A DNA stretch of 64,000 nucleotides from a virus (IMGVR_UViG_3300037400_004297:12591-76590); one strand, 5' to 3'; shown: positions 147 to 62,746, numbered from the stretch's first letter. Notes: generated from the letters alone by a model not told the origin. Made by a program: numbers and translations.

Positions 147-180
147 AATCGAGGTAATGTTTGGTTATCTCGATTTTTTT
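147..180 (+). terminator. Intrinsic terminator
   Basis: AATCGAGGTAAT-GTTTG-GTTATCTCGATT stem-loop followed by a T tract. Confidence 0.75.
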
Positions 181-191: not shown

Positions 192-218
192 CACTCGAAA
201 TAATAAAATGTGTACGTT

Positions 219-485
219 ATGACAAGAGAACAAGCTAAACAGATTCTTCTCAAGAGCATTGAGAAGGAGATAAAAAAATATGGTGAGGATACTGTCGCAG
301 TGATGTCACCTATGCCAGGCAAGAACTTCTGGACATATAAAGAGTATAAGGATGCTGTTATTAATGACACTGACCTTGATGGCTGTGAGGATTCTAATCC
401 TATCGATTCTCTTATCAGGTATGATGAATATCGTTTGGAGCGTGGCATGGAGAGTATGGTTGATAAGTTTTTAAAGGAGAAGTAA
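219..485 (+). CDS. Hypothetical protein
   Basis: ORF downstream of the promoter; ATG 219 preferred over GTG 210. Confidence 0.7.
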   Translation: MTREQAKQILLKSIEKEIKKYGEDTVAVMSPMPGKNFWTYKEYKDAVINDTDLDGCEDSNPIDSLIRYDEYRLERGMESMVDKFLKEK

Positions 486-486
486 T

Positions 487-789
487 ATGAGTAATTTGAT
501 GATTCTAATTCTAGTATGGGTAGTAGGCATTATTATTACCTTATTCATTCTCTATAAACAAAATGATAAGATAACACTTAGCGATGCACTATTGGTGCTG
601 TTCTTCTGGTGGTTTTATTTAATATTCTTCATCAGTATGTGGTTGACCGTATGTGTTGAATGGATTTATGATAACACCAGGGACATAGTATTATTTGAGA
701 AGAAGAAAGCCCCAAGGTGTAACAAGAAAACAAAGTTCCAGGAAACTATGGATAAACTGGAGAAACAAGTTGAAAATTTTAAAAAGTAA
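487..789 (+). CDS. Hypothetical membrane protein (2 TM segments)
   Basis: Two hydrophobic stretches, tight operon spacing. Confidence 0.7.
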   Translation: MSNLMILILVWVVGIIITLFILYKQNDKITLSDALLVLFFWWFYLIFFISMWLTVCVEWIYDNTRDIVLFEKKKAPRCNKKTKFQETMDKLEKQVENFKK

Positions 790-808: not shown

Positions 809-2845
809 ATGAAAAAGCTTTTATGGATTATGTGTGCAATGCTGGTCGGTATGTCAGCATATGCAAGTGAGACTAACGACACCATTATTAACAAGTCACT
901 TGACGAGTTTACGGTAACGTCGTTCTATCGTAGTTCCACCCCAATTCTGGGTAGCACTTTGAATTCACAGTCATTGATTTCTGCAAACTATGGTCAAGAG
1001 CCTTCTTGGCTGTTAGCAAACATGCCTTCCATCTTTGCATTCAGTGACAATGGTACTGATTTCGGTTATGGCTATTTCCGTATTCGTGGACTTGACCAGA
1101 CTAGAATAAATGTAACTCTTGATGGAATGCCTTGGAATGAGGCTGAGGATTTTGGCTGTTATTTCGCTAATAGCCCTGATATTTTAGCAGACGCTGGCAG
1201 TGTTGAAGTTGGACGTGGTACAAGCACCTATAACCCTGGTACTGCATCGTATGGTGGAAGTGTAAACATTAACTCTGTTGACCTCAAAAAGGACACTGAA
1301 TCATATGCAATGTTTGGTGGTGGTAGTTTTGCATCATTTAAGACATCTGTCAATATTAATACAGGTCTTATGGGTAAGTGGGCTATGCATGTACGTGCAA
1401 CAATGTCAGAAACTGATGGCTATCGTGAGCATAGTTCAAATAAATCTAAGTCACTTGGCTTTAAGCTTGGTTATTTCATTAATGATAAGAGTTCAATTGA
1501 CCTGCTGTCAATCACTGGATATCACAAGAACGGACAGGGATATATTGGTGGCACAATGGAGGAGCTTGCGAAGAATCGTAAGATGAATGGCTGTAGTGAA
1601 TATGAGGACGATAATTTCTTCCAGACGGTAAATAAGCTTACCTATAATAGTTGGTTTGGTGATAAGGTATTGTTTACATCTTCATTGTATTGGAGTATGC
1701 TTCGTGGAGAGTATCGTTTTGATTTAGACAATTATCTGTTGCGAATGGAGGATTTTCCAGCGCAAACTGGCATGGTGTATAACTATGGGCTTATTCACCA
1801 CAGCTATGGTGGTAATGCAGCAGCACGTTATTACATCAACGACGGCTCAATTACATTAGGTACTAACATCTATAAGTTCGAGCGTGAGCATTATCTTGAT
1901 GACCGTAATGTTGATAAGGCTAAGAATATCACACCTGCTGACTACTATGACAATCGTGGACATAAGATGAGCTATGAGGCATTCATTAATGCGAAGAAGT
2001 CATTTGGCAATTTCACACTGTCTGCTAATGTTCAATATCGTGGTGTTAAGTTCTGGTATGTTGACCTTATGAATCCATTAGTTAACTTTGATGAGAATAC
2101 AACTTGGAACTTCATTAATTTTGGTGCTGATGCAAGTTATAAGATTGGAAGTCATAATGAGTTATATCTGAAGTACGCACGTGCTCACCGTGAACCGACA
2201 CGTACAGATATGTTTGGTGGAAATGAATGGTATGTTGGTTCACTTACAACAACAGATGCTGAGGTTTCAAATGATATTGAATTTGGTTGGAATATTGCTG
2301 CAAAGAAGATTAATGCTAATGTAAACCTGTTTGGAATGTTCTTTGAGAACGAGCGTTCACTTACTGGTACACTTGGTTTAAACGGTCTTCCTGAGCATGA
2401 GAAGGCTGATAACAGTCATCGTATGGGTATTGAGTTATTCGTTGATTATGAGCCTTTTAGTAAGTTCCATATCGTTAATAACTCGTCTTTCTCTAATAAT
2501 AAGGTAAAGACTGAGACCTATGGAACTAAAAGTCATGTATTAACTCCTAATTGTACGTTCAACCAGGCGTTTGAGTGGCGTGATAACAAGTGGAGTGCTG
2601 GGGTAGAGTGGAAATATCGTAGTCATATGTACATTGATATGGCAAATGAGTTCCGTGTCCCTGACCTGTGGCAGCTTAATCTCTATGGTAGTGTTACCCT
2701 TGGCAATTTCATCGTCAGTGGGCATGTTAATAACATTACCAATCGTGACAATATGCAGACAGGTGTGCTAACCAATACCAACAAGGCACGTTTCATGCCT
2801 GATGCGCCAACTAACGTGTTTGCTTCGGTGAAGTACATGTTCTAA
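809..2845 (+). CDS. TonB-dependent outer-membrane receptor (resembles Bacteroidota vitamin/thiamine-type TBDRs)
   Basis: Signal peptide, TonB-box-like LDEFTVTS, plug motif FRIRGLDQTRINVTLDGMPWNE, beta-strand-rich body, C-terminal ASVKYMF ending in Phe. Confidence 0.9.
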   Translation: MKKLLWIMCAMLVGMSAYASETNDTIINKSLDEFTVTSFYRSSTPILGSTLNSQSLISANYGQEPSWLLANMPSIFAFSDNGTDFGYGYFRIRGLDQTRINVTLDGMPWNEAEDFGCYFANSPDILADAGSVEVGRGTSTYNPGTASYGGSVNINSVDLKKDTESYAMFGGGSFASFKTSVNINTGLMGKWAMHVRATMSETDGYREHSSNKSKSLGFKLGYFINDKSSIDLLSITGYHKNGQGYIGGTMEELAKNRKMNGCSEYEDDNFFQTVNKLTYNSWFGDKVLFTSSLYWSMLRGEYRFDLDNYLLRMEDFPAQTGMVYNYGLIHHSYGGNAAARYYINDGSITLGTNIYKFEREHYLDDRNVDKAKNITPADYYDNRGHKMSYEAFINAKKSFGNFTLSANVQYRGVKFWYVDLMNPLVNFDENTTWNFINFGADASYKIGSHNELYLKYARAHREPTRTDMFGGNEWYVGSLTTTDAEVSNDIEFGWNIAAKKINANVNLFGMFFENERSLTGTLGLNGLPEHEKADNSHRMGIELFVDYEPFSKFHIVNNSSFSNNKVKTETYGTKSHVLTPNCTFNQAFEWRDNKWSAGVEWKYRSHMYIDMANEFRVPDLWQLNLYGSVTLGNFIVSGHVNNITNRDNMQTGVLTNTNKARFMPDAPTNVFASVKYMF

Positions 2846-2861
2846 TTGGTTAATAATAGTT

Positions 2862-2912
2862 AAAAAATGAGGTAATCGTTTGGTTATCTCATTTTTTTTA
2901 TGTAAATTTGCA
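2862..2912 (+). promoter_or_regulatory. Terminator hairpin fused to TAAATTTG-CA promoter element
   Basis: AAAAAATGAGGTAAT-CGTTTG-GTTATCTCATTTTTT hairpin nearly identical to 147-180, then TAnnTTTG at 2903-2910. Confidence 0.75.
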
Positions 2913-2934
2913 GGTGAAATAAAATTAATTAATT

Positions 2935-3429
2935 ATGTTAGTTTGGGCTTTTAATAAAAATAATAAATCATTTAAATTGTGCGGAACATATGAGACATTG
3001 TTTTGGACAGATAGAATGGGGTGCAAAGAAAGTAGTGTTTATATAAATGAATGCGACTACGAACTACCTAAAGATGTAGTAGATGCTTATTTTTCTGATT
3101 TGCTTTTTAACCCCTTTACTGAATACAAATTTATTGTGAATAAGGAGAAATATGAGAAATATAATAGTTTCGGAGATTTTCCAACCACATACTTGGGTAC
3201 TGTCTGTATTGTAGATGATAACAACAAAGTACTAAATGATAGACTTTATTCCCAATCAAATAATCCAAAAATAAGCATTTTAGAAAAATTTTTCGAATGT
3301 ATTGGATATAAAGTTGAAATTTATAGACTTAATTACAATATGGAAAAAGAAATGAAAGAAAAAGGGTACGAACCTGTGTACTATTATGGAAGTGGTAGAG
3401 GTTGTGCATTATTTGTTAAAAAGGTATGA
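2935..3429 (+). CDS. Hypothetical protein
   Basis: ORF after the promoter, overlaps the next start by 4 nt. Confidence 0.7.
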   Translation: MLVWAFNKNNKSFKLCGTYETLFWTDRMGCKESSVYINECDYELPKDVVDAYFSDLLFNPFTEYKFIVNKEKYEKYNSFGDFPTTYLGTVCIVDDNNKVLNDRLYSQSNNPKISILEKFFECIGYKVEIYRLNYNMEKEMKEKGYEPVYYYGSGRGCALFVKKV

Positions 3430-4514
3430 AAATAGGACTTTGTTTTGGTGGATATTGTCCAATGCATCGTGGGCATTTGGATGGCATTATGAGAGCCAAG
3501 AAGGAGAATGACTTGGTTTTTGTATTTGTGTGTGGCTATGACAATGAGCCTCGTGCTGGAAACATTAACCTCACACTCAAAGAACGTGCTGCAATTGTTC
3601 GTAAAATATTCCGCAATGATGAGATTATCAAGGTTGAGGTGATTAACGATACTGAACTTGGCATTGATGAGAGCATGAGTGAAAACAACTGGGTTGTATG
3701 GCAAACTGCTGTGTCTAAGATATTAGACAAGCACGATGCAATGCATTATGGTGATAAAATTACCTGGTATGTTGCCGAGCCTATGTACAAGGAAATGCTG
3801 GAGAAACATAATATGTTCAAGGCTGATGTAACTCTCATTGATAAGGTAGTGCCAGTGAGTGGAACTGCAATACGTGAAAACCCATTGAAATACTGGAAGT
3901 ACATTGTCAGGGAATATCGTAATAACCTGTGCAAGAACATTCTCATTACTGGAACAGCTTCTGAGGGTAAGACAACGCTAGTACGTGACATATCAACGTA
4001 TTTTGGCATCAACCATTCTGAGGAATATGGTCGTGATGACCTGCTTGCCAAGTGTAAGAGTGATACAGACCTTACTGCTGATGATTTCGTTGACTTCCTG
4101 ATTGGTCAGAGTCTGGATATGCGCAAGCGTATTGCCAATAATGACAATGGCGTGTTTATTTCAGATACTGACAATTTGGTTACGCTAATGTATGCATTGG
4201 CATATACTGAAGACCCAAATGTACCAATCACAAAGGAGGAATATGATAATAAGGTACTTCCAGTAGCAAAGGCTCTTGAGGGTCGTGTAAAGTGGGACAA
4301 GATATATTTGTTACCACCAATGAATAAGTTCGTTGATGACGGTAGCAGGTATATGAAACAGGCTTCCATTGATGAAAGGGTTGCCAATTTCTCAAAACTA
4401 TCAGCGTTATTAAAGGATTTTGGATTGTATGACAAGGTAGAAATACTTTCTGGTGATTTCAAATCCAATTTTGAAAAAGTAAAAGACTATATCAACGGTT
4501 TATATAATGAGTAA
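3426..4514 (+). CDS. nadR: NadR-like bifunctional NMN adenylyltransferase / nicotinamide riboside kinase
   Basis: N-terminal nucleotidyltransferase GGYCPMHRGH (HxGH); C-terminal P-loop ITGTASEGKTT; no HTH domain; adjacent to pnuC. Confidence 0.85.
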   Translation: MKIGLCFGGYCPMHRGHLDGIMRAKKENDLVFVFVCGYDNEPRAGNINLTLKERAAIVRKIFRNDEIIKVEVINDTELGIDESMSENNWVVWQTAVSKILDKHDAMHYGDKITWYVAEPMYKEMLEKHNMFKADVTLIDKVVPVSGTAIRENPLKYWKYIVREYRNNLCKNILITGTASEGKTTLVRDISTYFGINHSEEYGRDDLLAKCKSDTDLTADDFVDFLIGQSLDMRKRIANNDNGVFISDTDNLVTLMYALAYTEDPNVPITKEEYDNKVLPVAKALEGRVKWDKIYLLPPMNKFVDDGSRYMKQASIDERVANFSKLSALLKDFGLYDKVEILSGDFKSNFEKVKDYINGLYNE

Positions 4515-5127
4515 ATATCTCTCGTTTGGAGGCATTTTCCTAGCCTTAGGACTGCTTTTGCAGGTGGTGACGTACATTGTTACCAATGACACGTTTTTGT
4601 CGCTTATAAGCGGAATGTGTGGTGTTATATCAGTCGTATTATGCAGTCAGAGGAGTATGCATTTCTATACTTTTGGATTCATACAGCTCTTTACATATGT
4701 TTATCTATGCTGGGAACAGAAGTTGTACGCTGAGATTGCAGAGAATGTTTTCTATTTTGTAACTATGCTATATGGGATATACGAGTGGAATAACCATTTG
4801 GCAAACGATAAGGTTGAAACCAAGTCATTGGGTATTAACTGGTATACCGTTCTTGGTGTTACCATATGTGCTTGTGGTGGTGTCTGGAGCGTGTTGTTAC
4901 ATACTGATGACACACAACCATTTATGGATGCCATAACGACAGTTCCTGCGTTTACTGCTCAGATATTGATGATTTTAAGATTCAAGGAGAGTTGGTATTA
5001 TTGGTTGTTTATTGACCTTGGTTGTATTGTTATGTGGTGGAATGCAGAGAATTACTGTATGGTAATGCAGTATATATTCTGGTCTATGAATTGTATATAT
5101 GGTTTAACTAAATGGAATAAAATATGA
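4507..5127 (+). CDS. pnuC: PnuC-family nicotinamide riboside (vitamin) transporter
   Basis: About 7 TM helices, QKLYAE and PFMDAITT segments, AQILMILRFKESWYYW motif. Confidence 0.85.
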   Translation: MSKYLSFGGIFLALGLLLQVVTYIVTNDTFLSLISGMCGVISVVLCSQRSMHFYTFGFIQLFTYVYLCWEQKLYAEIAENVFYFVTMLYGIYEWNNHLANDKVETKSLGINWYTVLGVTICACGGVWSVLLHTDDTQPFMDAITTVPAFTAQILMILRFKESWYYWLFIDLGCIVMWWNAENYCMVMQYIFWSMNCIYGLTKWNKI

Positions 5128-6230
5128 AAAAGTTTTTTATTACCCTTTCATTGGGACTGATTTCATTGGCTTGTATAGGTCAAAATGATTTTGAGGTGGC
5201 ACAGTCTTTTATGTCAAAGAAGGGTGTTACCCTGGTTAATAACGGTGCTGTGTCTAGAAGAGCAACAGCAAGTAACAACCTGTACTCCATTTTCAAAGGA
5301 GAAGATGGAAAGGGATTTGCCATTGTGGTGAATGGGGCTGTTATTGGCTATTCAACAGATGATGAAATGGATGCCAATAACCTACCACCACAATTGAAAG
5401 AAATGCTAGACAACTATCCAAAGACATCTACAAGAAGGGCAGGTAATAATGGTTATCCTGATTGGTTCACACCTAGGAATGTTACACCTATTGAACCTAT
5501 GCTTACGACACAATGGGGGCAATATTCACCATACAATGATTTACTTCAACTGAAAGGTATATGTTCTGGTGTTGCAAAGGTACAAATTCTACATTACTAC
5601 AGAGTTCCTCGTACATATCTTGAATTCACATGGGAAAGTAGAAATCAGGTATTTCCAATAACAACATTCAATCATGATTTGATGCTTGACAAGTATGTAG
5701 AAGGTTCGTATACTGAGGAGCAAGGATATGAGGTTGCCAAACTATATTATTACGTAGTAGGGCTTGAATCATTTAACCCAGGTAACAGTATTTTTAGGCT
5801 GAAACAACAGCCACATGAGCCAAACAGGGATTCGGTGGACATCTATCTTGAGAATTCTCACCCTCTTTTTGTAATGGGTGGTGACAGTACTAATCTTTGG
5901 CATGCATATGTTATAGACGGACGTGATTCTGATGGTTTATACCATGCCAATTGGGGCTGGGATGGATGGGCTGACGGATATTATGTATATGCCGAAAATT
6001 ACAAAGACGTAGATAGAGGTGAATCTGAACGTGTCGGGTGGTTTTCCTGGAATTTTTGGTTTGCAACCTATATTCCTGATGACTATACCGCTTCTATCAC
6101 AAGGGTTGAACGTAAGATAGAGACTAATGGTGCTGTTTACAATCTTCAGGGACAGAAAGTAGGTGATAGCCTAAATGGGTTACCAAAGGGCGTATATATT
6201 AAAGGTGGTAAGAAATACATTGTAAAATGA
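5124..6230 (+). CDS. C10 (streptopain/interpain-like) cysteine protease with signal peptide and T9SS C-terminal sorting domain
   Basis: PMLTTQWGQYSPYN, catalytic Cys in ICSGVAKVQIL, His in WHAYVIDG, YHANWGWDG; tail VYNLQGQKV...LPKGVYIKGGKKYIVK. Confidence 0.85.
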   Translation: MKKFFITLSLGLISLACIGQNDFEVAQSFMSKKGVTLVNNGAVSRRATASNNLYSIFKGEDGKGFAIVVNGAVIGYSTDDEMDANNLPPQLKEMLDNYPKTSTRRAGNNGYPDWFTPRNVTPIEPMLTTQWGQYSPYNDLLQLKGICSGVAKVQILHYYRVPRTYLEFTWESRNQVFPITTFNHDLMLDKYVEGSYTEEQGYEVAKLYYYVVGLESFNPGNSIFRLKQQPHEPNRDSVDIYLENSHPLFVMGGDSTNLWHAYVIDGRDSDGLYHANWGWDGWADGYYVYAENYKDVDRGESERVGWFSWNFWFATYIPDDYTASITRVERKIETNGAVYNLQGQKVGDSLNGLPKGVYIKGGKKYIVK

Positions 6231-7093
6231 TACACTATAACGTAAATACATGTGACCAGATTTGTAACGAATTGCAGATTCATTTCACAAAACTGTGTCC
6301 AAATAGGTGTCCGTTTTGTGTGGATGCTATGAACCCTGGTGTAAAGGCAGAATCGCCAAAGCCAGATGTTATGGCAATATTCCAGACCGTTTCTCAGTGT
6401 AAGGATAAAATTGAATCTGTGTGTATAACAGGTGGAGAACCAATGTTGTTTATGAATGATGTTATTCAGCTTATTAACCTTTTGAAGAGAAATACTGAAT
6501 TGAAGATATATCTTGTAACATCAATGCCAGAGGAATGCCACAAACATAAAGATTTATTCTTCCAAATCATTGATTTGTGTGATGGCGTTTCTATATCTCC
6601 CCAACACTATAATGAAGAAATTGGAGATAAAATGCGTGGTCATAAATCAACATTTGACCGTCAGGCATTATACGCTGAACTTCCTCACAAGGAAAAAGTA
6701 ACACTTAACATTAACATTATGCGACCATTTCTTTGTGAAAAGAGTGAGATATGCAAATGTGTTGAACATTATAATAAACTTGGATTTAAGGATATAAAGG
6801 TTGCTGAGCTTTTCAACAAAGAGGAAATGTACGTCAGTTTTGAGGAAGTCTTTGGAATTAAACTTAAGTCTCCCTTCGCTCATGGGTGTAAGACACCAAA
6901 TTTTGATATTACTCCTTGGATTCCGTCGTTTGATGGAAAGTTTACGCTTAAAAGGACTTGTTTCCTGGTAAATAAGAAGCTTCATGCAAACTTGTCAGAT
7001 ATGTTTAAGTCTGCTACAAGGCATTTTTTGTCAAAGGGGTATTATTTTGGTGTTGTATATGAGGATGGAAGTGTACATCCTTATTTCGTATAA
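6227..7093 (+). CDS. Radical SAM protein
   Basis: CPNRCPFC (CX3CX2C) and ITGGEP motifs; no obvious SPASM domain. Confidence 0.9.
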   Translation: MIHYNVNTCDQICNELQIHFTKLCPNRCPFCVDAMNPGVKAESPKPDVMAIFQTVSQCKDKIESVCITGGEPMLFMNDVIQLINLLKRNTELKIYLVTSMPEECHKHKDLFFQIIDLCDGVSISPQHYNEEIGDKMRGHKSTFDRQALYAELPHKEKVTLNINIMRPFLCEKSEICKCVEHYNKLGFKDIKVAELFNKEEMYVSFEEVFGIKLKSPFAHGCKTPNFDITPWIPSFDGKFTLKRTCFLVNKKLHANLSDMFKSATRHFLSKGYYFGVVYEDGSVHPYFV

Positions 7094-7119: not shown

Positions 7120-7428
7120 ATGGAAAAGTTATTGTTAATTGGAGAAAATGATTTGAAGAAAATCATAAGTGAAGCTGTTACAAACGCTGTCGATACAGCA
7201 ACCAGGAAAATTGCAGCAAGGTCTGCTGTTGTTAATTACAAAAATAGGTTATTTACAGAGGAGAGTTCACCTTTTGCACCATCTTTTGACCCAGTGCATC
7301 ATTGTACTTGTGGAAACACTGGTGGTTGTGGCGCTGATGAAACAGACGGTGGCTGTGGTGGAGGCAGACGAAGTAGCTGGGGTTCATCAGGAGGCTGCGG
7401 AGGTAGCTGGAATGATGGGGGCTGTTAA
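7120..7428 (+). CDS. Small protein with IRLTESDL-like leader and Gly/Cys-rich tail (6 Cys); RiPP-precursor-like
   Basis: N-terminus KLLLIGENDLKKIISEAV; C-terminus CTCGNTGGCGADETDGGCGGGRRSSWGSSGGCGGSWNDGGC. Confidence 0.75.
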   Translation: MEKLLLIGENDLKKIISEAVTNAVDTATRKIAARSAVVNYKNRLFTEESSPFAPSFDPVHHCTCGNTGGCGADETDGGCGGGRRSSWGSSGGCGGSWNDGGC

Positions 7429-7431
7429 TAT

Positions 7432-7462
7432 AAGGCGAGGGTTGGTAACCCTCGCTTTTTTT
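7432..7462 (+). terminator. Intrinsic terminator
   Basis: GCGAGGGTT-GGT-AACCCTCGC perfect stem plus T tract. Confidence 0.85.
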
Positions 7463-7524: not shown

Positions 7525-7914
7525 ATGGCTAAGAGACAACTATTTGGCATAAAATACCCATTTGTTCCTGACACAGAGACAGGGTACTATGTTGCTGCCA
7601 ATAAAACTATTGCTGAGAAGGTTAGAAGCCAATTGATGCATATAGTCTTTACCCCAAAGGGACAGAGGATTAGAAACCCAGAATTTGGTACTGATTTGAT
7701 TAAATTCATTTTCAGCCCAAATGATGGTACTACCTGGGAATCAGTGAAGGCTGAGGTGACAGAATCGGTTAAAAGGTGGGCAACTAATATCAATTTAAGA
7801 GACATAAAGGTAGTGCAGAATGAAGAAGATGATGCACAAGTCTTTGTAAGGTTAGACTATAGCGTTACAGAGGGTAATAAAACGACTAATGACAGCGTAG
7901 TGGTAGAATTATAA
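7525..7914 (+). CDS. Baseplate wedge protein, T4 gp25/GPW-like
   Basis: FGIKYPF, TPKGQRIRNPEFGTDL motifs typical of the gp25 family. Confidence 0.85.
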   Translation: MAKRQLFGIKYPFVPDTETGYYVAANKTIAEKVRSQLMHIVFTPKGQRIRNPEFGTDLIKFIFSPNDGTTWESVKAEVTESVKRWATNINLRDIKVVQNEEDDAQVFVRLDYSVTEGNKTTNDSVVVEL

Positions 7915-9929
7915 TGGAAAAGAAGATAAATTATTTAAGTAGAAGTTTTGCTGATATTAAAAATGAACTTGTGAAGTTCAGTAATCAGTATTATCCAGAG
8001 CTTGCTGATGATTTTGAGGATTCAAGTATTGGTGCTTGGTTTATCGACCTTGTATCTGCTGTTGGTGATGACCTTAGTTATCACACTGACAGGATGTATC
8101 AGGAAACCAACATGAATAGTGCAAATTTGAAAAGCACTTTACTTAATCTTGCAAGAACTAATGGGCTGAAAATACCAGGACCAAAATGTTCAATCTGTGA
8201 GGTTGAGCTTAGTTGTGTTTTACCACCTTCTGCTGGAGAAAATATCGGGCAACCAAACTGGAATTATGCACCAATAGTTAAGAGAACTAGCTTATTTTCT
8301 GCTGGAAATAGCTTTTTTGAACTTAGCGAGGATGTAAATTTTGCTGAACAGTTCAACAGTGATGGGTTTTCAAACAGGAAAATAACGCCTTCACGTGATA
8401 ATAACGGTAATGTTACTGGATATACTGTTGCCAAGTCAACAATAGCCATCAATGGTACTACAAAGGTTTACAAAAAGGTTCTTTCTGCCAGTGATATTAA
8501 ACCATTTATGGAAGTTGTCCTTCCAGAAAATAATATTACAAATATAGAATCAATTATTTTCAAAGAGACTAGTGATATTTCTAAGTCTCCAGACACTTAT
8601 GAATACTATATTGATGCAGAAGAGTATAGATTGTCATCTGGTGCTGTAATGACATACAGATATTTTGAAGTTGATTCACTTGCAGACCAATATAGATTTG
8701 GAATGGTGTCAAGCGAAAATATCGGTGATGATAAAGTTTTGAAAAACATATACAAACCACATGTTTATGAGGACTATACAGAGTTTACAGCAAATGGCGC
8801 TCAGAAGGCAACAAGATATTATCGTGGTGAGTGGAAATCATTGACTCAAAAATTTATTACAGAATATACTGATAATGGTTATCTCAAAATAATCTTTGGG
8901 GGTAGTAATGGGTATGCTGTAAAGCCAGAGAATGCAACAACATATGGAGACTATATTGCTTCAAATATCATAAACAATGATATGCTTGGAGTGCTGCCTA
9001 AAGAAGGGTGGAGTATGTTTGTTTTGTATCGTGTTGGTGGTGGTGTATCAACCAATATTGGTCCTGGGTCAATAACAACCATAAACAGCGCTCAAGTTGA
9101 CTGGGGTGGTCAGACAGGTAATACCAATGGTACTCAGAGAGGACAGGTAATATCATCTTTAGAAATTACTAACTTATCAACAGCGCTTGCTGGTAAGGAT
9201 GCACCATCAAATGAGGAAATAAAATATCTTGTGAAATACAACACTTCAGCACAGAATAGAGCTGTAACTGTTAAAGATTACAAGACAAAACTTATGCAGA
9301 TGCCTCCTAAGTTTGGTGCTCCATTTAGGAACACTGTAATTGAAACAAATAACAAGATTGAAATGAGTTTCCTTGGTCTTGATGCAAACGGACAACTTGA
9401 TTCTGCGCTTCCTCAGACACTTGTTGAGAACGTTATAGAGTATATGTCCAGCTACAAGCAGATAAACGATTATATAGAGATTAAAAGCGGTAGAATCTAC
9501 AATATTGGGTTTGAAGTAGACTTGTTCGTTTCCAAGAACTATAACACTCCAGACGTTATATCAAATGTTATTGAGGTGATTAAGCAATATTTTGCTGTTG
9601 AAAATCATGATATGGGTGATGATATATTCCTTGGAGACTTGGAGAAAGAGATTTCACTTGTTGACGGTGTTATCAGTCTTATCAATTTGAGGGTATTTAA
9701 GATATGGAATAATGGGTACAGTCCTGATAAATGCCCATTGCCTACTTATGTTGAAGGAAGCGTCTGTGATGTTGGTACAAATAATTCAACATATACTATA
9801 GATGGCGTTAGTAATATTGAACAAATAGATATTGAACAAACAGACCATGTTTTATATGGAGATTATAATTCGATGTATGAAATAAAATTTCCTGCCACAG
9901 ATATTCAATGCCGTGTAAAATTGCGATAG
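7914..9929 (+). CDS. Baseplate wedge protein, T4 gp6 / baseplate J-like
   Basis: YLSRSFADIKNEL, DDLSYHTDRMYQE, YRVGGGVSTNI, AQNRAVTVKDY; follows gp25. Confidence 0.8.
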   Translation: MEKKINYLSRSFADIKNELVKFSNQYYPELADDFEDSSIGAWFIDLVSAVGDDLSYHTDRMYQETNMNSANLKSTLLNLARTNGLKIPGPKCSICEVELSCVLPPSAGENIGQPNWNYAPIVKRTSLFSAGNSFFELSEDVNFAEQFNSDGFSNRKITPSRDNNGNVTGYTVAKSTIAINGTTKVYKKVLSASDIKPFMEVVLPENNITNIESIIFKETSDISKSPDTYEYYIDAEEYRLSSGAVMTYRYFEVDSLADQYRFGMVSSENIGDDKVLKNIYKPHVYEDYTEFTANGAQKATRYYRGEWKSLTQKFITEYTDNGYLKIIFGGSNGYAVKPENATTYGDYIASNIINNDMLGVLPKEGWSMFVLYRVGGGVSTNIGPGSITTINSAQVDWGGQTGNTNGTQRGQVISSLEITNLSTALAGKDAPSNEEIKYLVKYNTSAQNRAVTVKDYKTKLMQMPPKFGAPFRNTVIETNNKIEMSFLGLDANGQLDSALPQTLVENVIEYMSSYKQINDYIEIKSGRIYNIGFEVDLFVSKNYNTPDVISNVIEVIKQYFAVENHDMGDDIFLGDLEKEISLVDGVISLINLRVFKIWNNGYSPDKCPLPTYVEGSVCDVGTNNSTYTIDGVSNIEQIDIEQTDHVLYGDYNSMYEIKFPATDIQCRVKLR

Positions 9930-36160: not shown

Positions 36161-36210
36161 AAAGATTGGGTTAACACTTGGTTAATCCGATTTTTTTTTG
36201 TACTTTTGCA
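36161..36210 (+). promoter_or_regulatory. Terminator hairpin fused to TACTTTTG-CA promoter element
   Basis: ATTGGGTTAAC-ACTTG-GTTAATCCGAT plus T tract, then TAnnTTTG at 36201-36208. Confidence 0.7.
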
Positions 36211-42993: not shown

Positions 42994-43042
42994 AAAATCG
43001 GGACAATGCTTGTATGTTCCGATTTTTTTATGTAAATTTGCA
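42994..43042 (+). promoter_or_regulatory. Terminator hairpin fused to TAAATTTG-CA promoter element
   Basis: AAAATCGGGACA...TGTTCCGATTTT then TTTATGTAAATTTGCAG, as at 2890-2913. Confidence 0.75.
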
Positions 43043-48545: not shown

Positions 48546-49262
48546 ATGAATCAATATGCAAATGATTTTACACATACAGTCAGGCTATATTATGATGACT
48601 TAAAGAAAACAAAACCACTTACGAGAGCCAGAGAGAAGCGTCTCATAAGGCTCTCCAAGAGAGGTGACACAAAAGCTAGAAATGAACTGCTTGAAGCGAA
48701 TCTTAAATTTGTTTTTGACGTGGCAAAAAGATACTCTGGCAGGGGTGTTCCAATGGGTGACTTGATTTCAGAAGGTAATATGGGTTTAATAAAAGCCATA
48801 GAAAAATTTGATGAGAGAAACGATGTTAAATTTATATCATATGCTGTATGGTGGATAAGGCATTCTATATTGGATGCTATTCAGAAGAAGAAATTAACTG
48901 AGTTCGTTGAGGTTGAAAATGGTGTCAGTAATGATAAAACAATATCTAATATGCTTGTAGATGAAGAGGATGATATTTGTGATAGTTTTCAATCTCCAGT
49001 AAGGGAAGATATTTTCTCCACTGAGAATACAATTTTACAAAACAATCTCTTAGGTAAAATGTTTGGTGGACTCTCCAAGAGAGAAATGACAGTAATATTG
49101 GATTATTTCGGGATGGAAGGTCGTGACAAAAAGAATCTAATAGAAATTGGTAAAGAACTTGGAATAACAAGCGAAAGAGTCAGACAGATTAAGCTTAATG
49201 CAATAAGGAAAATGCGTTCAAGTGCAATGATGTTTGATAATTTGGAGGAAATTATGATTTAA
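48546..49262 (+). CDS. Phage RNA polymerase sigma-70 family factor
   Basis: LLEANLKFVFDVAKRY, DLISEGNMGLIKAIEKFD, KFISYAVWWIR (region 2); LIEIGKELGITSERVRQI (region 4). Confidence 0.92.
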   Translation: MNQYANDFTHTVRLYYDDLKKTKPLTRAREKRLIRLSKRGDTKARNELLEANLKFVFDVAKRYSGRGVPMGDLISEGNMGLIKAIEKFDERNDVKFISYAVWWIRHSILDAIQKKKLTEFVEVENGVSNDKTISNMLVDEEDDICDSFQSPVREDIFSTENTILQNNLLGKMFGGLSKREMTVILDYFGMEGRDKKNLIEIGKELGITSERVRQIKLNAIRKMRSSAMMFDNLEEIMI

Positions 49263-56890: not shown

Positions 56891-57445
56891 ATGAATGTTA
56901 TAAAAACTGATATTGAAGGAGTTGTTATCATTGAACCAAAGATATTTGAGGATTCAAGGGGATATTTTTTTGAGTCATACAATGACCTAGAGTTTATTAA
57001 CAAAGTTGGGTTTGTAGATTTTATTCAGGATAATGAATCAAAGTCTTCCTATGGTGTTATGAGAGGGCTTCATTTTCAAAGACCGCCACATACACAGGCA
57101 AAGCTTGTAAGGTGCGTTAGAGGGGCTGTATTGGACGTTGCTGTTGATTTGAGAAAGGATAGCCCAACTTATGGTAAACATGTTGCAGTAGAACTTACTG
57201 AAGATAATCATAGACAATTGTTTATACCTAAGGGGTTTGCTCATGGTTTTGCGGTTCTTAGTGATACTGCTGTATTCCAGTATAAATGCGATGACTTTTA
57301 TCATCCAGAGCTGGATGGAGGTATAAATATACTTGATAAGTCACTTGGTATAGACTGGAAAATACCAGAAGATAAGGTTATACTTTCTGATAAGGACACG
57401 AAGCATCCAATGTTGAAAGATTTTGATACACCGTTTACAATGTAA
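56891..57445 (+). CDS. rfbC: dTDP-4-dehydrorhamnose 3,5-epimerase
   Basis: FEDSRGYFFESY, QDNESKS, RGLHFQ, AKLVRCVRGAVLDVAVDLR, GFAHGF, YKCDDFY. Confidence 0.95.
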   Translation: MNVIKTDIEGVVIIEPKIFEDSRGYFFESYNDLEFINKVGFVDFIQDNESKSSYGVMRGLHFQRPPHTQAKLVRCVRGAVLDVAVDLRKDSPTYGKHVAVELTEDNHRQLFIPKGFAHGFAVLSDTAVFQYKCDDFYHPELDGGINILDKSLGIDWKIPEDKVILSDKDTKHPMLKDFDTPFTM

Positions 57446-61813: not shown

Positions 61814-62746
61814 ATGGCAGATATTGAACTACTAAATAAACTTGACAACTATGACAAATCAGTATGTTATCAATACAAAAGAAGGGTTGATACTATTGAG
61901 GAAGATAAAGAAAAATATGGATGGACAAATGAAGACCTTTCTGAGATAAAATTATCTGATTTTGTTTTTGAAAATATTACATCAGATGAAGATAAAAAAG
62001 AATGTAAGAGCTTTATAGAGAGGTATGAATGGCTAGGTTGTTTGGGATGGTATAATACTCATTATTTTACCGCCAGATATGTTGGCAATAAGAAACCAGA
62101 AGGCACTGATGAAAGGGGGCTTCTTGGTGGGGTGATAGTAATGGGCATGCCAAATGCGTTTTCTAAGATGCTTGGCGAAGAAACTAGAAATCTCGAAAGA
62201 TTGGTTAATAGGGGTGCATCTGCTTCTTGGACACCTCCTCACCTTGCTACCATGTTCCTAAATTGGTGTTGTAGGTGGATGGTTCAGAATACCCAATATA
62301 GGTTGTTCACTGCATACAGTGACCCTTCTGCTGGTGAACTTGGTACAATTTACATGGCATCTAATTGGTGGCTAGTGTCTAAGAGAGGCGGTGCTGCTAC
62401 TATGTGCATAAACCCATATGATAGAACAAAAGTAATTAGTGACAGAAGGTTTAGAGCACGTTCATTCTATCGAAGATATGCAGATGAGCTTGGAATCGAG
62501 TGGCAAGATAATTGGAAAAATGATACTAAAATGCTGTGGGAAAACATACCAGATGATATAGAGAAAAAACTAAGAGATTATAGCAAAAAGAAATATGCGG
62601 AAGCTGAAAAAATAATTGTTCCAGCAAAACTTAAATGGGCATATGTTCTTGGGAAAGACAAAAAAGAAACAAAATTTCTTAGGAGAAGATTTTTGGAACT
62701 TAACAAAATATATGACCACCCAAAAAAAGAGGATAGAGGAAAATGA
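61814..62746 (+). CDS. Mom-like (GNAT-fold) DNA adenine modification protein
   Basis: FIERYEWLG, GVIVMG, LVNRGA, FTAYSDPSAGELGTIYMASNW, similar to Mu Mom family YAD...G.IY.A.NW. Confidence 0.65.
   Translation: MADIELLNKLDNYDKSVCYQYKRRVDTIEEDKEKYGWTNEDLSEIKLSDFVFENITSDEDKKECKSFIERYEWLGCLGWYNTHYFTARYVGNKKPEGTDERGLLGGVIVMGMPNAFSKMLGEETRNLERLVNRGASASWTPPHLATMFLNWCCRWMVQNTQYRLFTAYSDPSAGELGTIYMASNWWLVSKRGGAATMCINPYDRTKVISDRRFRARSFYRRYADELGIEWQDNWKNDTKMLWENIPDDIEKKLRDYSKKKYAEAEKIIVPAKLKWAYVLGKDKKETKFLRRRFLELNKIYDHPKKEDRGK

Follow-up and report, generated by a model that had tools for sequence, protein, structure and literature searches.

A TonB-dependent receptor beside NadR and PnuC in a huge gut phage: a candidate outer-membrane extension of NAD+ rebuilding

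Why would a phage keep the gene of an outer-membrane receptor next to two genes of nicotinamide adenine dinucleotide (NAD+) salvage? This question is raised by a stretch of viral DNA of 64,000 nucleotides (IMGVR_UViG_3300037400_004297:12591-76590, hereafter the window), which encodes on its plus strand, between positions 809 and 5127, a TonB-dependent outer-membrane transporter (TBDT), a NadR lacking the helix-turn-helix (HTH) domain, and an inner-membrane facilitator of the PnuC family. The original prediction had read these genes as a complete route from outside the cell to NAD+, and Pfam, profile, structure and motif evidence confirmed all three of them in place, including both the adenylyltransferase and the kinase part of NadR. 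We propose, with a probability of roughly 60%, that the locus is an NAD+ rebuilding module of the NARP3 type, made up of HTH-less NadR and PnuC, which has been extended by a phage-encoded TBDT.

The receptor, NadR and PnuC

The receptor gene (809-2845, plus strand) encodes 678 amino acids and was assigned by its Plug domain, profile matches, a structure model and its position in a tree. The Plug domain covers residues 58-150 (Pfam PF07715, E 4.5e-9), and homologues of the receptor match PF00593. A Sec signal peptide with cleavage between ...AYA and SE was read from the sequence, and the C-terminus (...KYMF) ends on Phe. The stretch DEFTVTS at residues 32-38 was judged by eye to be a TonB-box-like motif, by comparison with the BtuB/FhuA type. 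A profile of the receptor and its relatives matched the barrels of the solved TBDTs PiuA, YncD and PqqU. Structure prediction, which had been suggested together with the original prediction, succeeded for the barrel, which is confident at a predicted local distance difference test (pLDDT) score of ~70-87 in the AlphaFold model, but not for the plug, which is of low confidence and poorly resolved (mean pLDDT of the model, 64.7). Foldseek returned PqqU (TM 0.78), YncD, FecA and FhuA as the top matches, on which the model superposes along its full length with TM values of 0.72-0.78. Taken together, the signal peptide, the TonB-box-like motif, the plug, the 22-strand barrel and the terminal Phe make this a complete TBDT, compact and of cofactor size.

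Megaphage receptors have been noted before. Those of Mar_Mega_1 and LR745206 were read in 2021 as 'SusC' proteins of carbohydrate uptake (PMC9723777), and LR745206 as well as the Lak phages hold homologues of the window receptor. A SusC-type identity was considered and rejected for the window receptor, which has 678 residues as opposed to ~1000 with an N-terminal extension and an adjacent SusD-like lipoprotein, and which finds its best structural matches in PqqU and YncD. No SusD match was obtained among the receptor neighbours searched, namely the small membrane protein and the 164-amino-acid open reading frame (ORF), the 91-amino-acid ORF at 210-485 not having been part of that search.

The NadR gene (3426-4514, plus strand) encodes a bifunctional protein of 362 amino acids, as indicated by family, structure-profile and motif evidence, with the Pfam domains CTP_transf_like and AAA_28. 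The protein aligns to positions 65-405 of the 411-position NadR model NF005988; since the match begins only at position 65, the HTH domain is absent, and the sequence opens directly on the adenylyltransferase domain. The motifs of nicotinamide mononucleotide (NMN) adenylyltransferase (NMNAT) are present as HRGH at residues 14-17 (HxGH) and SGTAIR (SxTxxR), and those of ribosylnicotinamide kinase (RNK) as Walker A GTASEGKT, ExGR, DTD and DDGSR (DDGxR). In a multiple alignment, these motifs coincide with those of the NadRs of Lak, of the LR7565xx phages, of bacteria and of the T5-like phage Bas28. The best solved relative is the biochemically characterised NadR of L. lactis (6GYE, E 7e-46), and a further match was obtained with 9X6F (E 3.5e-18). 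The catalytic motifs of both domains are all intact, and enzymatic activity is predicted from them.

PnuC (4507-5127, plus strand, 206 amino acids) matches PF04973 with E 1.2e-39, scores 123 bits against a cut-off of 42 with TIGR01528, and matches the PnuC of N. mucosa (4QTN) with E 1e-21. Its start lies inside the end of NadR, in an overlap of 8 bases (4507-4514). The protein keeps both gate Trp residues and, in its Asp form, the family motif WxxW(x)3D/N (PMC5749112).

The pair of NadR and PnuC recalls NARP3 (Sci Adv, August 2026, PMC13464706), a phage system of HTH-less NadR and PnuC for which import of nicotinamide riboside (NR), rebuilding of NAD+ and defeat of Sir2-HerA were demonstrated by experiment. 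NARP3 consists of the NadR-like enzyme Bas30_86 and the PnuC-like transporter Bas30_87 of T5-like Escherichia/Salmonella phages, and TonB is not mentioned in the paper (PMC13464706). Since NARP3 was established experimentally, import-based rebuilding of NAD+ by phages is already known, and the earlier view of PnuC with NadR as a distinct import-based route has been overtaken; what stands of that interpretation are the conserved unit, its counterparts in bacterial operons and the intact NadR motifs. As in Bas28 (Escherichia phage IrmaTschudi, a relative of Bas30), PnuC directly follows an HTH-less NadR that has both the NMNAT and the RNK domain; in the window the two genes overlap, and NadR shares all catalytic motifs with the Bas28 enzyme. 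The chemistry predicted from these motifs is the same, with NR imported and turned first into NMN, then into NAD+. The window module differs from NARP3 in having a TBDT as a constant third partner, in the Bacteroidota-type hosts and genomes of hundreds of kb of such phages, and in the low identity to the Bas28 proteins (24% for NadR and 28% for PnuC). NARP1, NARP2 and NadV-NatV of KVP40 are likewise NAD+-restoring pathways of phages, but they obtain NAD+ from intracellular nicotinamide and ADP-ribose without an import step; none of them was found in the 76.6-kb fragment to which the window belongs.

Conservation of the trio and its bacterial counterparts

This fragment, 76.6 kb long, is filed in IMG/VR as a virus, and CheckV estimates its completeness at 34%. 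Genes for baseplate gp25 and baseplate J (7525-9929) lie just past the NAD-gene region, and the contig also carries a primase, SbcC, homing endonucleases, a 5'-3' exonuclease and a sigma factor. Near-identical DNA is held by the bovine-gut metagenomes of 16 studies, and close homologues of the receptor and NadR were found on contigs of 374-427 kb. Given the virus record, the phage genes, the bovine-gut DNA and the large contigs with homologues, the contig is a piece of a huge rumen or gut phage. A megablast search of the first 12 kb of the window against GenBank phages gave no match. The baseplate J protein of this phage is not Lak-like, and the lineage is therefore distinct from the Lak megaphages.

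The original prediction had called for a survey of the co-occurrence of the three genes across phage genomes, which bore out their linkage. Among 50,697 GenBank phage records searched with tblastn, the receptor was present in only 22, namely 15 Lak records, four LR records of 635-735 kb and three fragments, and NadR and PnuC were present in 442 and 550 records, respectively. A scan of IMG/VR yielded 18 loci. In all 16 that have an intact receptor gene, this gene is followed on its own strand by NadR and PnuC; the remaining two are a contig-end fragment and a decayed copy. Receptor, PnuC and NadR also occur together in Lak-C1, LR756501 and LR756502 (the LR7565xx phages measure 642-735 kb), and the same trio arrangement is seen on the metagenome contigs L005-L009 and L017. 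The retention of the trio in 16 of 16 IMG/VR loci and in Lak-C1, LR756501 and LR756502 speaks for a functional unit that is conserved, and against a chance neighbourhood of the three genes. As to the decayed copy (L076 8001-9938, IMGVR_UViG_3300022654_000841), its receptor, reduced to ~360 amino acids, is immediately followed by PnuC, and a NadR was not detected there. A motif scan of the genomes of 185,579 species, which used the phage family's own motifs and is thus uninformative on distant bacterial homologues, returned a single contig. It comes from a 'Clostridia' metagenome-assembled genome (MAG) of goat ileum, and shows the order TBDT-NadR-PnuC-radical SAM as in L008; the probable explanation is mis-binning of a phage contig.

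Bacterial homologues were collected by an exhaustive profile search of representatives together with a sample of 401 Bacteroidota genomes. The search revealed a graded family of receptors of ~650-690 amino acids, and those with readable context adjoin PnuC and/or an AAA_28 NadR-like gene. In a MAG of the Bacteroidia, a TBDT-PnuC-AAA_28 set is divergent from NrtR-NUDIX-NAMPT-Prs, a typical locus of the NAD regulon. At a score of at least 420 bits, only four matches were found in the 401 Bacteroidota genomes, and three of these are overlapping TBDT-pnuC-nadR operons on large chromosomal contigs of 0.78-4.9 Mb. Such operons comprise the same three families as the window module, with receptors in one clade, but their genes follow each other in the order TBDT-PnuC-NadR with overlaps, whereas in the window the TBDT is followed by a hairpin and promoter, an ORF and then NadR-PnuC; the window proteins are 24-25% (NadR) and 19-23% (PnuC) identical to theirs. 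The next receptor class, at 320 bits or less, is mostly 760-830 amino acids long owing to an N-terminal extension and consists of thiamine receptors.

Receptor trees were calculated in quick IQ-TREE runs with LG+G4 and with the C20 mixture, and both agree. The window receptor falls into a phage clade with Lak (100% support), whose sister is a contig with the order PnuC-TBDT-NadR. A wider clade of 14 rows, supported by 99-100 in the Shimodaira-Hasegawa-like approximate likelihood ratio test (SH-aLRT), unites this phage clade and its sister with two further lineages of phages, the bacterial operons, a receptor that stands alone and the locus L014. The context label is clustered on the tree, requiring 3 changes compared with 8.9 in shuffles, and none of 500 shuffles was as low. 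Phage receptors occupy at least three positions, and the gene order differs as well: it is NadR-PnuC in the group of the window and Lak but PnuC-NadR in bacteria and LR phages, with the bacterial order TBDT-PnuC-NadR being kept by LR756501, LR756502 and L017. The several tree positions and the differing gene order argue that the module was assembled or acquired more than once. We propose that it descends from, or shares ancestry with, the rare TBDT-pnuC-nadR operon of Bacteroidota.

The bacterial operons also bear on the idea that the receptor remodels the surface of the infected cell, by superinfection exclusion or receptor masking, and does not serve uptake. This function has been raised for phage outer-membrane proteins by analogy with lambda Lom (10.64898/2026.10.24.761521), and these phages encode other surface proteins too, in the window a C10 protease tagged for the type IX secretion system (T9SS). 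However, bacterial chromosomes, in which exclusion plays no part, show just as strict a linkage to PnuC and NadR, and the conserved plug, TonB-box-like motif and barrel are what is expected of a working transporter, so that surface remodelling is a highly improbable purpose of the receptor. The same preprint, of October 2026, catalogues the outer-membrane proteins of huge phages, reports that a 22-strand TonB-dependent receptor of Lak is transcribed, and names nicotinamide mononucleotide transport among the neighbours of such genes, discussing surface remodelling and not a pathway (10.64898/2026.10.24.761521). That the receptor is strictly linked to NadR and PnuC, or homologous to bacterial operon members, is stated neither in this preprint nor in the study of 2021 (PMC9723777). 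Literature searches pairing TonB with nicotinamide riboside, NadR or PnuC turned up no description of a TBDT-pnuC-nadR operon, subscription journals lying outside their coverage. The constant outer-membrane leg, the homology to bacterial operons and the kinship with thiamine receptors are new with respect to the papers found.

The proposed route and competing explanations

In the route that we propose, the receptor would be expressed from a promoter of its own, then exported through Sec and inserted into the host outer membrane by the β-barrel assembly machinery (BAM). It would presumably be energised by TonB-ExbBD of the host; the three complete megaphages and the window fragment yielded no ExbB gene, and a TonB_C gene was present only in LR756501.1 (470226-470459, minus strand, in a frame of 268 amino acids, E 5e-23). 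The receptor might then concentrate a scarce NAD precursor in the periplasm, most likely NR and possibly NMN or NAD+. As family membership and the linkage to NadR suggest, NR would cross the inner membrane through PnuC by facilitated diffusion. The kinase domain of NadR would trap it as NMN, which the NMNAT domain would adenylate to NAD+; activity has been proven for the homologous NadR of L. lactis and for the NARP3 enzyme Bas30_86. The phage would benefit from a supply of NAD+ that is independent of host synthesis, and by analogy this supply could either offset defences that deplete NAD+, which NARP3 has been shown to do, or sustain a megaphage infection of long duration. Whether Bacteroidota-infecting megaphages thus install a TonB-dependent importer that forms, with PnuC and NadR, a pipeline across three compartments from NR, NMN or NAD+ in the environment to cytoplasmic NAD+ is in our judgement evenly balanced.

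The biochemistry would be the same if the value of the module lay in general metabolic supply during a long and costly infection, for instance for NAD+-dependent DNA ligase and for redox reactions. Domains of NAD+-dependent ligases are indeed encoded by Lak-C1 and LR756502, and one lies directly upstream of the receptor in L007. Megaphages furthermore carry whole sets of NAD genes (NAMPT-family, NadE, NUDIX). The NAD island of LR756501, a phage of 735 kb, comprises a NAPRTase/NAMPT-family gene, NadE directly upstream of the receptor, the TBDT, a 205-amino-acid ORF, PnuC and NadR (L002 4049-11475), the trio of LR756502 is accompanied by a NUDIX gene, and each of the three complete megaphages has a gene of the NAPRTase/NAMPT family. 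Free-living Bacteroidota, moreover, use the same operon as ordinary vitamin salvage. On the other hand, the two-gene core alone overcomes Sir2-HerA in NARP3 (PMC13464706). We regard metabolic supply as the chief value of the module as a plausible explanation, albeit one that falls somewhat short of probable.

Several observations weigh against an NAD-precursor importer that acts together with NadR and PnuC. We infer the substrate of the receptor from gene context only, and because NR (255 Da) could pass through porins, it is not evident why an active receptor should be needed. The receptor and NadR-PnuC are probably two adjacent transcription units with promoters of the same class, since a hairpin with T-run and a repeat of the promoter-like motif (2869-2912) separate them. 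PnuC has G, M and D at the positions of N45, Q94 and N180, so that the three NR-contact residues of the NARP3 transporter are not conserved; the residue numbering of Bas30_87 was checked on the Bas28 PnuC, and the contacts are a property of Bas30_87 and not a definition of the family. The Asp form of the PnuC motif, in addition, corresponds to the state found in PnuT (PMC5749112). The chromosomal NadR-linked PnuCs of Bacteroidota show the same states, sharing the D and lacking the Gln, and judging from these sequences the G, M and D look like a lineage trait rather than a loss of function.

The remaining points concern the receptor itself. A thiamine pyrophosphate (TPP) riboswitch lies just upstream in 17 of the 30 top Bacteroidota loci of the thiamine class, and the TPP-linked receptor L014 (1260-3567, 670 amino acids, 412 bits) nests within the NadR-linked clade. 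The thiamine-receptor sister subfamily and the nested L014 indicate that receptor specificity is labile, and the position of L014 suggests, from sequence comparison, that ligands may have been switched between thiamine and an NAD precursor within the family. No residue columns consistently split NadR-linked from TPP-linked receptors. A specificity signature was rejected; only two columns separated the groups, and L014 has the NadR-type state at both. The loci L023-L047 are further TPP-riboswitch-controlled receptors of the sister subfamily.

Thiamine or another vitamin is the main alternative ligand. The receptor would in this case import thiamine or another cationic vitamin, and its adjacency to NadR and PnuC would reflect a shared island of vitamin uptake. 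TPP-riboswitch receptors as the nearest other subfamily, with L014 nested in the clade, the PnuT-like Asp of PnuC, and the receptor's own promoter and terminator all fit this explanation, and thiamine TBDTs are, like the window receptor, of vitamin size and paired with inner-membrane facilitators of the Pnu family. They differ, however, in their setting, as the neighbours of the window receptor are NadR and PnuC, to which it is syntenic in 16 of 16 loci, and as overlapping TBDT-pnuC-nadR operons exist in bacteria, one of them beside the NrtR/NAMPT locus. No Rfam family, the TPP riboswitch included, reached the gathering threshold in the window or in the phage loci scanned (L001-L003, L013, L015, L017), and no thiamine pyrophosphokinase was seen among the annotated neighbours. 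Import of thiamine or a similar vitamin is therefore unlikely in our view.

If the receptor does import an NAD precursor, a counter-defence of the NARP3 type, extended to the outer membrane, would reach beyond T5-like enterobacterial phages into the largest known phages of gut and rumen. It would be the first case of a virus encoding TonB-dependent nutrient uptake for which the substrate is defined, and viruses would add an energised outer-membrane nutrient gate to their hosts, beyond inner-membrane carriers or enzymes. There would also be a subfamily of NAD-precursor TBDTs, sister to the thiamine receptors and mirroring the PnuC/PnuT split of the inner membrane. An uncharacterised TBDT subfamily of Bacteroidota would thereby obtain a candidate ligand, which bears on the cross-feeding of vitamin B3 in the gut. 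With three genes, and with known assays for two of them, the module offers a simple experimental handle.

Transcription units and neighbouring genes

The receptor unit is preceded by a hairpin resembling an intrinsic terminator (147-175, plus strand; 12-bp stem and T-run) that closes the upstream unit. The promoter-like motif TTTTTATGTAATTTTGCA, which includes a -7 box of the Bacteroidota type (TAnnTTTG), follows at 176-193 on the plus strand and is the probable start of the receptor unit. The first gene of the unit is a small ORF of 91 amino acids (210-485, plus strand), and a membrane protein of 100 amino acids with two hydrophobic helices (487-789, plus strand; weak match to phrog_14512 'membrane protein') is encoded directly upstream of the receptor. 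The first hairpin recurs in weaker form, again followed by a T-run, at 2869-2890 (plus strand), where the unit probably ends. The second promoter-like motif of the exact class (TTTTTATGTAAATTTGCA; 2895-2912, plus strand) is the probable start of the NadR-PnuC unit, which opens with a 164-amino-acid ORF without signal peptide or family match (2935-3429, plus strand) between receptor and NadR. Three genes of this unit downstream of PnuC stand outside the NAD route, namely a C10 cysteine protease (5124-6230), a radical SAM enzyme (6227-7093) and a Cys/Gly-rich ORF of 102 amino acids (7120-7428), all on the plus strand. A strong intrinsic terminator (7432-7458, plus strand; 12-bp stem with 6 GC pairs and T-run) closes the unit ahead of the baseplate genes. 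Exact copies of the promoter-like motif TTTTTATGTAAWTTTGCA are found at 176, 2895 and 43025 (43025-43042), and variants at 36193, 44413 and 58234. All listed copies sit just 5' of ORFs, and 7 matches were obtained compared with 1.1 expected. Hairpin and motif are fused at 147-193 and at 2869-2912, in the manner of a terminator-promoter cassette.

We considered whether the 164-amino-acid ORF is a fourth conserved component, or a lipoprotein partner at the surface, and rejected both, because it has no family match and no similarity to the ORFs at the same position in L001, L005 and L008. Among relatives, its homologues vary, being absent, replaced or located upstream of the receptor (L062). The region 2837-3430 is a strain-variable hot spot, and the contigs of several runs diverge at 2837-2912.

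In an rRNA-depleted RNA library that contains a ~95% identical relative, contigs cover the receptor (224-2843, in one piece), NadR, PnuC and downstream genes. These contigs carry no information on strand, level or ends, and the uncovered part at 3001-3300 has no evidential weight. Since carry-over of DNA is possible, they give a weak hint of expression of the receptor-NadR-PnuC region. In Lak-C1 (L001, 1642-10461), the receptor, NadR and PnuC have no in-frame TAG, and several neighbours need 7-13 readings of TAG as Q. As the trio needs no such reading, it could be translated under the standard code of the host, before any late code switch.

The C10 protease is of the streptopain/interpain type, with a Spi pro-domain and a lipoprotein-like signal peptide (...SLAC). 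It keeps the Cys, His (HAYVIDG) and NWGW motifs, its C-terminal tail resembles a T9SS sorting domain, and its frame begins within the end of PnuC and runs on into the start of the radical SAM gene. Since it is absent at this position in L005 and L060-L066, the protease gene is an insertion into the operon. A radical SAM gene lies directly 3' of PnuC, often overlapping it, in 10 of the 16 IMG/VR loci. The window enzyme has CxxxCxxC at residues 24-31, and the last ~40 residues of the 102-amino-acid ORF are rich in Gly and Cys with repeated GGC units, so that the two look like a maturase and precursor pair of the kind known from ribosomally synthesized and post-translationally modified peptides. 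Other cargo of the window comprises a sigma-70 family factor (48546-49262), a dTDP-4-dehydrorhamnose 3,5-epimerase (RmlC, E 1e-72; 56891-57445) and a Mom-family protein (61814-62746), and an IscB-like ORF of 435 amino acids with RRXRR and HNH domains, at 11130-12437 of L011, ends ~150 bases upstream of the window.

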